This document shows, piece after piece, positions 2,379 to 7,440 of a stretch of DNA of 64,000 bases. The DNA is taken from the NCBI RefSeq assembly GCF_016903815.1, contig NZ_CP069973.1; one strand, given 5' to 3'. This DNA is from Escherichia coli (GTDB lineage: Bacteria; Pseudomonadota; Gammaproteobacteria; Enterobacterales; Enterobacteriaceae). The notes under the pieces were generated by a model, which made no database searches, had not been told where the DNA came from, and worked only from the letters and a program-made list of their open reading frames with translations. Made by a program: the position numbers and the translations under genes. Within the stretch, counting starts at the first letter, position 1, and every line of letters starts with the position of its first letter.

Positions 2379-3164
2379 TTAGCGCACTAAATAACCACCA
2401 TCAACCACTAATAAATGTCCGTTGACATAATTCGATGCCGGACTTGCGAGGAATACGGCTGCGCCCATTAAATCCTGAGTATCGCCCCAACGGTTTGCCG
2501 GAATATGATCAAGAACGCGCTGATTGGTTTCTGGATTACTGCGTGTCGCCAGCGTAATATCTGTTGCATAATAGCCAGGGGCAATACCATTTACCTGAAT
2601 ATTATATTGACCTAGTTCATCACAGTAAGCTTTGGTGAATCCGGCAAGAGCATGTTTAGTGGCAGAATATGCAGGTGACCATTGTCCACCTAAGTAAGAG
2701 AATAATGAACAGATATTAATGATTTTACCGCTTTTCTGCGGGATCATAATTTTTGCAGCTTCATAGCTTAACTCGAATGCGGCGGTCAGGTTCACATCAA
2801 TCATCGGGTCCCAGTCGGCACGACCGAAGTCCAGCACCTTATTCAGCTTACAAATACCGGCATTGTTAATCAGAATATCGACGGTACCGAAACGTTCGCA
2901 ACAGGCGGCGATTATCTTCTGCGGCGCTCCTTCTGCGGTGATATCCACCTGCATGAAGTCCACCTCAACACCCTGTTTTTCAATCATTTCCTTTGTTTCG
3001 CCGTTATCTTTAACGAAGCTTGGAATAAAGATATTTGCGCCTGCTTTGGCCAGCGCCATGGCAAATGCCTGGCCTAAACCGCTATTCCCGCCGGTAACAA
3101 TTGCGGTTTTACCTTTCAGGGAGAAAAAATCCATTGAGAGCGCATTGAGAGATTCGATTGACAT
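2379..3164 (-). CDS. ygcW: short-chain dehydrogenase/reductase (SDR)
   Basis: ORF 2379..3239; TGxxxGxG Rossmann motif (TAIVTGGNSGLG); start set at MSIESL with a GGAG RBS, giving 261 aa. Confidence 0.8.
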   Translation of the reverse strand: MSIESLNALSMDFFSLKGKTAIVTGGNSGLGQAFAMALAKAGANIFIPSFVKDNGETKEMIEKQGVEVDFMQVDITAEGAPQKIIAACCERFGTVDILINNAGICKLNKVLDFGRADWDPMIDVNLTAAFELSYEAAKIMIPQKSGKIINICSLFSYLGGQWSPAYSATKHALAGFTKAYCDELGQYNIQVNGIAPGYYATDITLATRSNPETNQRVLDHIPANRWGDTQDLMGAAVFLASPASNYVNGHLLVVDGGYLVR

Positions 3165-3188
3165 AGTTAGCTCCAATTTCCGTAAGGC

Positions 3189-3235
3189 AAAAAAAAAGAA
3201 AGGTAACTTCCCCCGCGAGAGGGAAGTTACCTTTC
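3189..3235 (-). terminator. Strong hairpin plus U9 tract on the minus strand, in the 5' leader of ygcW
   Basis: Perfect 15-bp stem gaaaggtaacttccc / gggaagttacctttc (3198-3212 / 3221-3235), 8-nt loop, nine A at 3189-3197 on plus (U-run on minus). Confidence 0.55.
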
Positions 3236-3288
3236 TCATTATCTCTGGTAACTGGAGATAATTTTTATCATAAGGGCATAATCGCTAA

Positions 3289-3304
3289 TGTGATCGTAAT
3301 CACA
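3289..3304. promoter_or_regulatory. Perfect-consensus CRP site (TGTGA-N6-TCACA) in the ygcW/yqcE divergent region
   Basis: tgtgatcgtaatcaca read directly; both half-sites match the CRP consensus. Confidence 0.55.
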
Positions 3305-3407
3305 GTGTGATATTCGAATTGTCAAATAATTTTAAAAAGCAGAAGCGTGATTACTCTCACACAACACCACTGCTTTCCATGTTATTTCTTATTGCAATTA
3401 CTAGAGA

Positions 3408-3460
3408 CCTGAGAAAAGTAATCCACCTGAAAGGGCGGCTTACTTTTCTCTTTTTTTTGT
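3408..3460 (+). terminator. Terminator-like hairpin plus T8 tract on the plus strand, in the 5' leader of yqcE
   Basis: Perfect 11-bp stem gagaaaagtaa / ttacttttctc with 23-nt loop, followed by tttttttt, ending 23 bp before the yqcE ATG. Confidence 0.4.
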
Positions 3461-3482
3461 CTATTACAAATGGGAATACGAT

Positions 3483-4760
3483 ATGCAACACAACTCATAT
3501 CGCCGTTGGATAGCCCTCGCGATAATTAGTTTTAGCGGCGGCGTTAGTTTCGACCTGGCTTATTTACGTTATATTTATCAAATTCCCATGGCGAAATTTA
3601 TGGGATTCAGCAATACCGAGATAGGTTTAATAATGAGTACATTTGGTATTGCGGCCATTATTCTTTATGCCCCCAGCGGCGTTATTGCCGATAAATTTTC
3701 ACACCGCAAAATGATTACTTCCGCGATGATCATTACCGGATTACTGGGTCTGTTAATGGCAACATATCCACCGCTGTGGGTAATGCTCTGTATTCAGGTC
3801 GCCTTTGCGATAACCACTATTTTAATGCTGTGGTCGGTGTCGATTAAAGCCGCCTCATTGCTGGGCGATCATAGCGAGCAAGGGAAAATTATGGGCTGGA
3901 TGGAAGGGCTGCGCGGCGTCGGTGTAATGTCGCTGGCGGTGTTTACCATGTGGGTCTTTTCTCGCTTCGCTCCGGATGACAGCGCCAGTCTGAAAACGGT
4001 CATCATCATCTATAGTGTGGTTTACATCTTGTTGGGGATTCTGTGCTGGTTTTTTGTTAGCGATAACAACAATCTGCGCAGTGCCAATAACGAAGAAAAA
4101 CAGTCATTCCAGCTTAGCGACATCCTGGCCGTTTTGCGCATCAGCACCACCTGGTATTGCAGCATGGTGATTTTTGGCGTCTTCACCATCTACGCCATTC
4201 TGAGTTACTCCACCAACTATCTGACCGAAATGTACGGCATGTCGCTGGTGGCGGCGAGCTACATGGGGATTGTGATCAACAAAATCTTCCGCGCGCTGTG
4301 CGGCCCACTTGGCGGCATTATCACCACCTACAGCAAAGTGAAATCCCCTACCCGCGTGATCCAAATCCTTTCCGTACTCGGCTTGCTGGCGTTAACTGCC
4401 CTGCTCGTCACGAACTCTAACCCGCAATCGGTCGCGATGGGGATTGGCCTGATTTTACTGCTGGGATTCACCTGTTACGCCTCACGCGGGCTGTACTGGG
4501 CCTGCCCTGGCGAAGCGAGAACACCGTCTTACATTATGGGCACCACGGTAGGTATTTGTTCGGTGATTGGATTCCTGCCGGATGTCTTCGTTTACCCGAT
4601 TATCGGCTACTGGCAAGACACCCTGCCCGCTGCAGAAGCCTACCGCAATATGTGGCTGATGGGCATGGCGGCGCTTGCCATGGTGATCGTCTTTACCTTT
4701 TTGCTGTTCCAAAAAATTCGTACTGCTGATAGCGCCCCTGCTATGGCTAGCAGCAAGTAA
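3483..4760 (+). CDS. yqcE: MFS-family transporter
   Basis: 425-aa ORF, multiple hydrophobic segments; synteny. Confidence 0.85.
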   Translation: MQHNSYRRWIALAIISFSGGVSFDLAYLRYIYQIPMAKFMGFSNTEIGLIMSTFGIAAIILYAPSGVIADKFSHRKMITSAMIITGLLGLLMATYPPLWVMLCIQVAFAITTILMLWSVSIKAASLLGDHSEQGKIMGWMEGLRGVGVMSLAVFTMWVFSRFAPDDSASLKTVIIIYSVVYILLGILCWFFVSDNNNLRSANNEEKQSFQLSDILAVLRISTTWYCSMVIFGVFTIYAILSYSTNYLTEMYGMSLVAASYMGIVINKIFRALCGPLGGIITTYSKVKSPTRVIQILSVLGLLALTALLVTNSNPQSVAMGIGLILLLGFTCYASRGLYWACPGEARTPSYIMGTTVGICSVIGFLPDVFVYPIIGYWQDTLPAAEAYRNMWLMGMAALAMVIVFTFLLFQKIRTADSAPAMASSK

Positions 4761-4786
4761 GTCCAGAAAATTACAGGAGAAAAATC

Positions 4787-6265
4787 ATGTCGAAAAAATA
4801 CATCATAGGGATTGATGGTGGAAGTCAGAGCACAAAAGTGGTGATGTACGATCTGGAAGGTAATGTGGTTTGCGAAGGCAAAGGCTTATTGCAGCCGATG
4901 CACACGCCAGATGCCGATACCGCAGAACATCCTGACGACGATTTATGGGCATCATTATGCTTTGCCGGTCACGATTTGATGAGTCAGTTTGCCGGAAATA
5001 AAGAAGATATTGTCGGTATTGGTCTGGGATCCATCCGTTGCTGCCGTGCGTTATTGAAAGCCGATGGCACGCCAGCTGCGCCGTTGATTAGCTGGCAGGA
5101 TGCACGCGTTACACGCCCTTACGAACATACGAATCCTGACGTGGCATATGTCACCTCTTTTTCGGGTTATCTGACGCATCGCTTAACCGGCGAGTTTAAA
5201 GACAATATCGCCAACTATTTTGGTCAGTGGCCGGTGGATTATAAGACCTGGGCATGGAGTGAAGATGCCGCAGTCATGGAGAAGTTTAATATCCCCCGTC
5301 ATATGCTGTTTGATGTGCAAATGCCGGGCACTGTTCTTGGGCATATCACTCCTCAAGCCGCTCTGGCGACACATTTCCCGGCTGGGCTGCCGGTTGTTTG
5401 TACCACCAGTGATAAACCGGTAGAAGCACTGGGAGCCGGGTTACTGGATGATGAAACTGCGGTAATTTCTCTTGGCACTTACATCGCGTTGATGATGAAC
5501 GGCAAATTACTACCGAAAGATCCGGTAGCGTACTGGCCGATTATGTCTTCTATTCCGCAAACCTTGCTGTATGAAGGTTACGGTATTCGCAAAGGCATGT
5601 GGACGGTGAGCTGGCTACGCGACATGTTAGGCGAGTCGTTAATTCAGGATGCCAAAGCACAGGATCTTTCACCGGAAGATTTGCTCAACAAAAAAGCGTC
5701 TTGTGTGCCGCCAGGCTGTAATGGTCTGATGACGGTGCTGGACTGGCTGACCAATCCGTGGGAACCGTACAAACGCGGGATTATGATTGGCTTTGATTCC
5801 AGCATGGATTACGCATGGATATATCGTTCGATACTGGAAAGCGTGGCGCTGACGCTGAAGAACAATTACGACAATATGTGTAATGAAATGAATCACTTTG
5901 CAAAGCATGTGATCATTACTGGCGGCGGTTCGAACAGCGATCTGTTTATGCAGATTTTTGCCGACGTGTTCAACCTTCCGGCACGCCGTAACGCCATTAA
6001 TGGTTGTGCAAGCCTGGGGGCAGCGATTAATACGGCGGTAGGTCTGGGGCTATACCCGGATTACGCAACGGCTGTCGACAAAATGGTTCGCGTGAAAGAT
6101 ATCTTTATGCCTGTTGAGAGCAACGCCAAACGCTACAACGCGATGAATAAAGGCATTTTCAAGGAGTTAACCAAACATACTGATGTAATCCTGAAAAAAT
6201 CGTATGAAGTGATGCATGGGGAATTGGGGAATGCGGATTCGATCCAGAGCTGGTCGAATGCGTAA
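4787..6265 (+). CDS. ygcE: FGGY-family carbohydrate kinase
   Basis: 492-aa ORF with N-terminal IGIDGGSQSTK kinase motif; synteny. Confidence 0.85.
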   Translation: MSKKYIIGIDGGSQSTKVVMYDLEGNVVCEGKGLLQPMHTPDADTAEHPDDDLWASLCFAGHDLMSQFAGNKEDIVGIGLGSIRCCRALLKADGTPAAPLISWQDARVTRPYEHTNPDVAYVTSFSGYLTHRLTGEFKDNIANYFGQWPVDYKTWAWSEDAAVMEKFNIPRHMLFDVQMPGTVLGHITPQAALATHFPAGLPVVCTTSDKPVEALGAGLLDDETAVISLGTYIALMMNGKLLPKDPVAYWPIMSSIPQTLLYEGYGIRKGMWTVSWLRDMLGESLIQDAKAQDLSPEDLLNKKASCVPPGCNGLMTVLDWLTNPWEPYKRGIMIGFDSSMDYAWIYRSILESVALTLKNNYDNMCNEMNHFAKHVIITGGGSNSDLFMQIFADVFNLPARRNAINGCASLGAAINTAVGLGLYPDYATAVDKMVRVKDIFMPVESNAKRYNAMNKGIFKELTKHTDVILKKSYEVMHGELGNADSIQSWSNA

Positions 6266-6902: not shown

Positions 6903-7236
6903 TGGTTTATTCCCGCTGGTGCGGGGAACTCATCAGTGATATCCAACATTGCGGAGCTAAACGCGGTTTATCCCCGCTGGCGCGGGGAACTCTAATATCC
7001 CTGGCGATAATCAACCGGCTTACTCGGTTTATCCCCGCTGGCGCGGGGAACTCGAGAGCGAGGGGAGATTCCGGCAGGGCGTGCACGGTTTATCCCCGCT
7101 GGCGCGGGGAACTCGCGGGTATGCTCCGCTCCGTGTTCGACAAACTCGGTTTATCCCCGCTGGCGCGGGGAACTCAAGGTCGCGGGGACGCCACGGGCAG
7201 TCAATGTCGGTTTATCCCCGCTGGCGCGGGGAACTC
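6903..7236 (-). CRISPR. Type I-E CRISPR array, 6 repeats and 5 spacers, transcribed on the minus strand
   Basis: 29-bp repeats at 6903-6931 (3 mismatches, leader-distal), 6964-6992, 7025-7053, 7086-7114, 7147-7175, 7208-7236; five 32-bp spacers at 6932-6963, 6993-7024, 7054-7085, 7115-7146, 7176-7207. Confidence 0.95.
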
Positions 7237-7440
7237 ACTAAACATAACCTATTATTAATTATTGATTTTTTAAGTCAGTCACAATCTACCAACTTAACAG
7301 AAACACACAAACAACACATCCATTATGTTAAAGAGCACTTAATTCATTGATTGAAAAGCCAAATATTTAAAGTAATTCTATACCGACTAAAATCCACCAA
7401 ACTCCGACGTAATAATTTTCACTCCAACGAAAAATTAACG
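7237..7440 (-). promoter_or_regulatory. CRISPR leader (AT-rich, contains the array promoter)
   Basis: AT-rich sequence directly abutting the perfect repeat at the higher-coordinate end; the degenerate repeat is at the opposite end. Confidence 0.6.

Follow-up and report, generated by a model that had tools for sequence, protein, structure and literature searches.

The locus described here is the divergent intergenic region between ygcW and yqcE on the Escherichia coli chromosome, contained in a 64,000-nucleotide stretch of DNA that we refer to as the window. The 461 bases around it match several complete genomes at 100% identity, and the region is found at an identity of at least 95% in 5041 of 5426 complete E. 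coli genomes. The minus strand carries ygcW and ygcU, the plus strand yqcE and ygcE, and each of the two operons lies behind a leader with a hairpin and a run of U; these two leaders are the subject of the present analysis. The start of ygcW was placed at the ATG at 3164, which has a ribosome-binding site GGAG at 3174-3171, and the longest open reading frame, reaching 3239, was rejected as the true start. By protein family, the targets in the cluster are an SDR, an FAD oxidase, an FGGY kinase and MFS transporters. The gene for YgcP, annotated as a glycerol-3-phosphate responsive antiterminator, lies in the same cluster about 7 kb from the leaders. Its product matches Pfam family PF04309 over the full length (E 1.4e-62), and the solved GlpP-annotated proteins 3KTS and 1VKF are relatives of it.

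Both hairpins, which the first-pass annotation had described as terminator-like and oriented with their genes, are real. On the minus strand the 5' arm GAGAAAGGTAACTTCCCTC (3237-3219) pairs across a loop at 3218-3215 with the 3' arm at 3214-3196; the hairpin alone has a folding free energy (dG) of -30.7 kcal/mol, and the 101-nt ygcW leader folds at -42.4 kcal/mol, with z = -6.4 against dinucleotide shuffles. On the yqcE side GAGAAAAGTAA (3411-3421) pairs with TTACTTTTCTC (3440-3450) in 11 bp without mismatch, with an imperfect distal stem beyond; this hairpin has a dG of -20.5 kcal/mol and its leader a z of -3.1. In both cases 24 nt separate the U-run from the start codon (ATG at 3164 and 3483, respectively). 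Each hairpin is oriented with its own gene, and a bidirectional terminator was ruled out since neither has a T-run on the opposite strand.

The two hairpins are two copies of one element of about 65 nt. Its layout is a 5'-terminal box (A)GTTACY (box 1), a conserved AGAG, a spacer, GAGAAARGTAAC and the terminator, and the consensus can be written as (A)GTTACY - AGAG - N3-5 - (A)GAGAAARGYAAC - distal stem/loop - GCTTTTCTC - T-run. Common to both stems is GAGAAARGTAAY, a pattern that occurs six times in the window when up to one mismatch is allowed, versus 0.84 expected by chance; the arms of the two hairpins account for four of the six matches, and the other two are one-mismatch matches elsewhere. 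The symmetry of the divergent leaders, earlier called unusual, thus holds as an observation and is explained by paralogous copies, one for each operon of one regulon. The coordinates of the features are given in Table 1. Beside these, an inverted repeat at 3238-3262 (TTATCTC...GAGATAA) around box 1 of ygcW came up in the terminator scan. Because it extends across the ygcW start site, is mostly untranscribed and is not conserved within Escherichia (it differs in the E. coli genome L002), it was rejected as a part of the switch; it is probably incidental.

Table 1. Features of the ygcW-yqcE region in coordinates of the window.
Feature	Position	Strand	Remarks
ygcW leader element = ecr2774	3189..3257	-	ecr2774 converted ~3257 to 3184; covariance model match 3189-3254, 77.3 bits
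yqcE leader element = ecr2775	3396..3459	+	covariance model match 3395-3457, 69.4 bits
ygcW leader terminator hairpin	3196..3237	-	19 pairs, 2 G-U, loop UCGC
U9 tract of ygcW terminator	3189..3197	-	
yqcE leader terminator hairpin	3411..3450	+	perfect 11-bp stem plus imperfect distal stem
U8 tract of yqcE terminator	3451..3458	+	
Box 1 (AGTTACC), ygcW element	3247..3253	-	5' strand of antiterminator helix; pairs with 3231-3225
Conserved AGAG, ygcW element	3243..3246	-	unpaired in both conformations; candidate protein contact
Box 2 (GGTAACT), ygcW element	3225..3231	-	antiterminator 3' strand, part of terminator 5' arm
Box 1 (ATTACT), yqcE element	3397..3402	+	pairs with 3417-3422 (AGTAAT); G-to-A / C-to-T compensatory change versus consensus
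Conserved AGAG, yqcE element	3403..3406	+	
Box 2 (AGTAAT), yqcE element	3417..3422	+	common to antiterminator and terminator
Extended -10 (TGaTAAAAA), ygcW promoter	3262..3270	-	TGnTAAAAA kept in 17 Enterobacteriaceae; 5-9 nt upstream of mapped 5' end
Extended -10-like box (TGtTATTTC), yqcE promoter	3380..3388	+	CATGnTATT conserved; 8 nt upstream of mapped 5' end 3396
CRP site 1 (TGTGATCGTAATCACA)	3289..3304		~-41.5 versus ygcW start; ChIP-seq, Footprint-seq, PhyloScan, conservation
CRP site 2, predicted (cGTGATTACTCTCACA)	3346..3361		~-41.5/-42.5 versus yqcE start; half-sites invariant in 17 species
ygcW (SDR oxidoreductase)	2379..3164	-	first gene of ygcW-U-S-R-Q operon, behind minus-strand leader
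yqcE (MFS transporter) and ygcE (FGGY kinase)	3483..6265	+	operon behind plus-strand leader

Covariation of the leaders across relatives, which the first-pass annotation had named as a check, was analysed in an alignment (A2) of 60 non-redundant copies from several phyla. The helix formed by box 1 and box 2, the antiterminator (columns 2-8 with 29-35, AGTAACT), is paired in 95% of the cells, with six of its seven pairs formed in 97-100% of the sequences and double compensatory changes at four pairs (33 cells). None of 500 shuffles of these sequences reached the observed pairing or covariation score, and slid registers were 17-56% paired. Most copies have the box 1/box 2 haplotype GTTACT/AGTAAC, while GTTACC/GGTAAC and ATTACT/AGTAAT are those of E. 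coli ygcW and yqcE, respectively. Further haplotypes are GTTGCT/AGCAAC in Streptomyces and Arthrobacter, GTTGCT/AGCGAC in Listeria and Bacillus, and GTTGCC/GGCGAC in an enterobacterial metagenome-assembled genome; the compensatory changes arose separately in Bacilli, Actinobacteria, a spirochaete and Enterobacteriaceae. The basal stem of the terminator (columns 23-30 with 62-69) is 99.4% paired with three compensatory pairs, and column 29 shows covariation with each of the two partners open to it, column 8 (UA 48, CG 10) and column 63 (AU 50, GC 10). Two mutually exclusive helices are thus both supported by covariation, as expected of a terminator/antiterminator switch.

The nascent 5' part of the leader folds as the antiterminator, with predicted energies of -6.7 (ygcW), -1.4 (yqcE), -4.9 (Halobacillus) and -5.2 kcal/mol (Streptomyces), and its hairpin carries a purine-rich loop of 14-15 nt (AGAG-N4-GAGAAA). 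In the complete leader the terminator fold is ahead of the antiterminator fold by 15-20 kcal/mol (-41.7 versus -21.0 for ygcW, -23.3 versus -8.8 for yqcE). Because the terminator is so much more stable there, termination would be the default, as it is in LB medium, and read-through would require a stabilising factor. In neither fold is the AGAG paired, yet its positions show 83-98% conservation across phyla, while the four nucleotides that follow vary freely, which points to sequence-specific recognition by a factor. These features also bear on the idea that the hairpins are constitutive attenuators or insulators, which would damp CRP-driven transcription with no conditional read-through. Strong termination in LB would agree with such a role, as would the lack of a known inducing condition, but a simple terminator has no need of box 1, of its covariation with the terminator 5' arm or of an invariant loop motif, and we consider this explanation very unlikely.

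Mapping of 5' and 3' ends, another check proposed at the outset, could be taken from published data. Window coordinates are K-12 coordinates minus 2,897,109, and the table of Romero et al. was converted from U00096.2 (+1978). In the Term-seq data of Adams et al. (2021; PMC7815308, supplementary file 3), from cells grown in LB to an optical density (OD) of 0.4, 3' ends are placed at K-12 2900311(-) and 2900556(+), which precede the ATG codons of ygcW and yqcE by 38 and 36 nt, respectively. The ends were covered by 40,640 and 1,557 reads on average on the ygcW and yqcE sides; intrinsic-terminator scores were 15.8 and 11.4 (threshold 3), Rho scores were 0.50 and 0.61, neither of them a Rho region, and no known regulatory element was recorded for either end (PMC7815308). 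In the window they correspond to ...GGGGGAAGUUACC at 3202 (-) and ...GGCGGCUUACUUUU at 3447 (+). Two short RNAs were found by RNA-seq between ygcW and yqcE, ecr2774 of 73 nt and ecr2775 of 63 nt (Romero et al., 2014; PMC4681348, Table S5), the latter marked as detected by northern blot with medium-dependent abundance (PMC4681348, Fig. 7). Their 5' ends lie at box 1 (yqcE) or 4 nt before it (ygcW), their 3' ends at the U-runs, and they are the same molecules as the terminated ygcW and yqcE leaders whose ends were seen by Term-seq. According to published data, transcription of the intergenic region takes place in vitro as well. Both hairpins thus function as intrinsic terminators in vivo, as these data show, with short RNAs and Rho-independent ends at each. 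The northern detection of ecr2775 is taken here from the figure legend and the RNA-seq coordinates, since the probe sequence gave no independent confirmation: the probe printed in Table S9 (PMC4681348), CTCAAGGGGAGAAAACTTAGGGCCTCTATG, had no match in the window with up to 6 mismatches. This may come from mislabelling or from an error in text extraction.

The intergenic region was also aligned for 17 species of Enterobacteriaceae as a phylogenetic footprint. The invariant blocks were the two RNA elements, two CRP sites and two extended -10 boxes, while the spacers varied freely. A -10-like box is placed 7-10 nt before box 1 in every phylum, which agrees with the mapped 5' ends in E. coli. Each CRP site is centred about 41.5 nt (within 2) upstream of the mapped 5' end of its own RNA, a spacing that implies class II geometry. 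CRP binding at site 1 is known from ChIP-seq in enterotoxigenic E. coli and from Footprint-seq (Kd 1.7 nM), besides an earlier PhyloScan prediction, and yqcE-ygcE is listed in the Crp-activated regulon. Site 2 is probably bound by CRP as well, judging from its conservation and position. Site 3346-3361 is not in the published CRP lists examined, which cite 3289-3304 only. Promoters downstream of the hairpins, which would have spoken against control by the leaders, are not what was found: the 24 nt before each start codon are too short for a promoter, and the CRP sites and extended -10 boxes lie upstream.

The ecr RNAs are discrete short transcripts with their own promoter and an intrinsic terminator, as small RNAs (sRNAs) are, and the suggestion of sRNAs ending at the hairpins is borne out in so far as both stop at the U-runs. 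The hairpins could accordingly be seen as terminators of independent trans-acting sRNAs, the downstream genes being served by other promoters or by constitutive leak-through. The abundance and discrete size (63-73 nt) of these RNAs, their own promoters and the long U-tails reported would agree with this, and in E. coli a terminated leader can serve as an sRNA or a sponge in addition (Adams et al., 2021; PMC7815308). The short distance to each start codon, however, leaves no space for a second promoter, the element is always found directly upstream of and co-oriented with a module gene across phyla, and a plain sRNA would have no use for an antiterminator pairing that covaries. We therefore hold independent sRNAs to be improbable as the whole explanation; a function in trans would be an addition to the leader switch and not an alternative to it, so that the two do not exclude each other.

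Leader terminators in enterobacteria are classically under the control of leader-peptide translation, and this mode of attenuation, or the action of CsrA, Hfq, a BglG-type antiterminator or some other RNA-binding protein, had to be considered for the ygc leaders. An ATG is present in the 5' part of only 27 of the 60 copies, with no conserved open reading frame, frame or Shine-Dalgarno sequence, and an RNA that starts at box 1 has no space for an upstream open reading frame. As to other proteins, no PRD/BglG-family gene is present in the annotated cluster, and GGA motifs are not conserved. Either possibility appears extremely improbable to us.

The distribution of the element was followed in 80 loci around YgcP relatives, one genome per species, in which the cluster genes were mapped. 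Orthologues of ygcP adjoin ygcW/ygcU/ygcE, with or without yqcE, in Enterobacterales, Vibrio, Photobacterium, Geosporobacter and Sporomusa, and have the same neighbours in Bacillus, Listeria, Halobacillus, Gracilibacillus, Salibacterium, a spirochaete, Streptomyces and species of the Arthrobacter group. In Listeria, ygcP itself lies inside the regulated operon and may be autoregulated. A terminator scan combined with a motif search gave 104 copies of the element in 61 loci, each of them co-oriented and directly upstream of ygcW, yqcE, ygcE or ygcU. A covariance model (R1) made from homologous copies was run on the window and 81 loci (1.57 Mb, both strands), and all matches of at least 34 bits fell in leaders of module genes. 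The two leaders of the window were found with E values of 5e-15 (ygcW) and 4e-13 (yqcE), the remaining matches there were weak ones on the reverse strand of the same hairpins, and R1 found no third copy in the 64 kb, e.g., upstream of ygcN or ygcQ. A weak match (23 bits, E 0.06) was observed at 3065-3133 of locus L074, just downstream of a GlpP homologue lacking the ygc module; it is either due to chance or a very divergent relative.

The element was present in 62 of 63 ygcP loci with the ygcW/U/E module versus none of 18 without a visible module (nominal Fisher p 4e-17, the samples being phylogenetically related). The single locus with the module but not the element (L068) was rejected as a counter-example, because its operon leader lies outside the fetched DNA. 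Loci that are free of the element and carry more distant GlpP homologues belong to the canonical glycerol-3-phosphate type, in which a GlpA/D-like DAO+BFD oxidoreductase and a GlpQ-like phosphodiesterase (GDPD) are encoded. This ties the element to the YgcP subfamily rather than to GlpP proteins in general. In three such canonical glp-type loci, all from Blautia (L067, L071, L078), another conserved terminator leader (GAGACAAGAGCAGAGGCCG...GGTCTTGTCTTTTTT) was observed about 50-100 nt upstream of the glpP homologue; its 5' side is GAGA-rich, and it may serve another GlpP subfamily as a target for autoregulation. A scan of metagenome contigs with the RNA motif only gave five matches, all upstream of ygcW; ygcP is on the same fragment in four, and the fifth contig is cut off before ygcP would be reached. 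This small sample agrees with the coupling seen in the genome loci. YgcP of Enterobacterales is about 55-63% identical to that of Clostridia and Bacilli (L045-L065 versus L001). That protein, ygcW/U/E module and RNA element stay together across phyla suggests that the regulon as a whole was transferred horizontally.

The closest parallel is GlpP of Bacillus subtilis, which together with glycerol-3-phosphate relieves terminators located just downstream of the glpD, glpFK and glpTQ promoters, the glpD 5' untranslated region (UTR) alone being able to transfer the regulation. In both systems a PF04309 protein is encoded with its targets, a 5' UTR terminator follows directly after each promoter, each operon has one copy of the leader, and catabolite control is laid on top (CcpA in B. 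subtilis, CRP in E. coli); the evidence that the ygc terminators are conditional is the covarying antiterminator. The glpD 5' UTR of B. subtilis (PMC9604022, Table S4) has an analogous layout, with GGUC, a 14-nt GAGA-rich loop (CUGAGAUGAGGAGA) and the complementary GACC inside the terminator 5' arm. The ygc regulon differs in its targets, an SDR, an FAD-linked oxidase, an FGGY kinase, MFS transporters and electron transfer flavoprotein (ETF) genes as opposed to glpD/FK/TQ. As its targets are not glp genes and the canonical glp loci are without the element, it is a paralogous system outside the glp regulon. The ligand is probably not glycerol-3-phosphate. Unlike that of B. subtilis GlpP, the host range of the ygc system extends to Gram-negative bacteria (Enterobacterales and Vibrionaceae), and the part of YgcP in it is predicted. 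A paper that names GlpP (PMC3750489) does not analyse its RNA site, and another, on capping of glpP mRNA (PMC13010140), was set aside as irrelevant.

Two other groups of systems share parts of this design. In the ribonucleic antiterminator (RAT) systems of BglG, SacY and LicT (bgl in E. coli, sac/lic in B. subtilis), a weak antiterminator overlaps the 5' arm of a strong terminator and a dedicated sugar-responsive protein stabilises it, but these are CAT-PRD proteins, in contrast to PF04309, with another RNA consensus, and the ygc cluster contains no components of the phosphotransferase system (PTS) or PRD type. HutP, PyrR and TRAP of Bacillus are ligand-activated proteins that bind short purine-rich or repeated leader motifs and so choose between terminator and antiterminator; they differ from the ygc proposal in the proteins and the motifs, and PyrR and TRAP promote termination.

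It could also be argued that the leaders are riboswitches, with the AGAG...GAGAAA loop hairpin binding a metabolite of the pathway directly and so favouring the antiterminator, and YgcP being an enzyme or an unrelated regulator that travels along. Conserved unpaired nucleotides and alternative helices suit any ligand-stabilised switch, and co-occurrence with ygcP is inseparable from co-occurrence with the catabolic module. Against this stand four observations. A scan with Rfam 15 of the window and seven other, diverse loci placed no family at the elements. The conserved part outside the terminator is a 7-bp stem and a 14-nt loop with a variable 4-nt spacer, smaller and simpler than most aptamers. 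A member of a family studied as RNA-binding antiterminators is present in every locus, and the B. subtilis GlpP targets share the layout. A riboswitch is in our judgement an unlikely explanation. The Rfam matches that did appear in the window (rliE, NrrF and mir-1303) were far below the gathering scores and were rejected as chance matches to a hairpin. Of the modes of control earlier proposed for the two leaders, it is thus protein-dependent antitermination that fits best, whereas a classical riboswitch and leader-peptide attenuation find no support.

The reading that we prefer, with a probability of roughly 0.7, is that transcription is started by CRP and stopped by default at the terminator, unless YgcP, activated by its ligand, stabilises the antiterminator. 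CRP with cyclic AMP (CRP-cAMP) would open both class II promoters, and the RNA would begin at box 1 ((A)GUUACY). Early in transcription box 1 would pair with box 2 (AGUAAC) into a weak hairpin with its 14-15 nt purine-rich loop. When the 3' arm has been transcribed, the more stable terminator would capture box 2, and the polymerase would stop at the U-tract and release the RNAs of 63-73 nt. YgcP, once activated, would bind the hairpin of box 1, loop and box 2 and keep box 2 from the terminator 3' arm, so that the polymerase would reach the genes of both operons, ygcW-U-S-R-Q and yqcE-ygcE. As activator we presume a phosphorylated intermediate, which the FGGY kinase YgcE would make once its substrate has been taken up via YqcE or YgcS. 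The early part of this scheme is shown by our analysis or by published data, namely the hairpins and their action as intrinsic terminators in vivo, the ends of the transcripts, the binding of CRP at site 1, the covariation of both helices and the association with ygcP and the gene module. We infer the binding of YgcP to the RNA, the stabilisation of the antiterminator and the nature of the ligand from the family assignment, the genomic coupling and the parallel with B. subtilis GlpP.

Several points weigh against this scheme. Firstly, the searchable literature holds nothing that ties YgcP to these RNAs or to read-through, and the likeness to the B. subtilis glpD leader is one of layout, with no homology at the level of an alignment. 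Secondly, the yqcE antiterminator is very weak at -1.4 kcal/mol, and the sequences aligned for the covariation are related, so the shuffle statistics overstate their independence. Thirdly, all genome loci were fetched via ygcP, which makes a need for YgcP inseparable from membership in the same pathway cluster, and the ygcP-independent sample consists of the five metagenome contigs. Finally, the Term-seq 3' ends lie a few nucleotides inside the AU-rich base of the 3' arms and not in the U-tracts. This position suggests either that the released RNA is trimmed at its 3' end or that the G+C-rich upper stem causes termination, and does not choose between them.

The two transcripts, as unexplained sRNAs and premature 3' ends, and CRP site 1 are already known. 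In the original reports ecr2774 and ecr2775 are listed only as potential new sRNAs and the Term-seq ends as uncharacterised, with no structure, conservation, regulator or mechanism proposed (PMC4681348, PMC7815308). The searchable literature and Rfam 15 contain no description of the two RNAs as copies of one cross-phylum element, nor of the antiterminator/terminator structure, the coupling to YgcP or the second CRP site. The searchable literature likewise gave nothing on ecr2774/ecr2775, PF04309 or GlpP-like proteins in this role, with the results for ygcP, ygcU, ygcE and ygcN swamped by unrelated "ygce" matches.

The element accounts for two published puzzles, the orphan sRNAs and the uncharacterised premature 3' ends, and defines a conserved RNA family that Rfam does not contain, whose switch is supported by covariation and whose candidate regulator is YgcP. 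The ygc cluster (ygcNOPQRSUW-yqcE-ygcE) consists of conserved genes of unknown function to which the element offers a handle: a YgcP-responsive leader could lead to the inducer and hence to the substrate of the module in Enterobacterales, Vibrionaceae, Firmicutes, Actinobacteria and Spirochaetes. It may also reveal the RNA features recognised by GlpP-family proteins, which are not spelled out in the searchable literature. To our knowledge, few protein-dependent leader antitermination systems are known in E. coli K-12. If the proposed mechanism is true, the ygc operons would form a previously unrecognised regulon of this kind, and their terminated leaders may additionally act in trans. More speculatively, the element would be the first defined RNA recognition module of a GlpP-type subfamily, moved between phyla together with the protein and the catabolic module, or, in a radical variant, a new minimal class of riboswitch for which YgcP is not the sensor; we regard this wider reading, of which the regulon and the action in trans are part, as rather doubtful.

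Two minor observations were made in the vicinity of the locus. Between ygcE and queE, at 7024-7237 of the window, lies a CRISPR array with the type I-E repeat of E. coli (period 61, 3.5 copies), which is annotated as CRISPR in a matching complete genome. Outside the window, an insertion of IS1397 (IS3 family) was seen between ygcP and ygcQ in locus L001 (9263-10611), fully matching strain 7/2.

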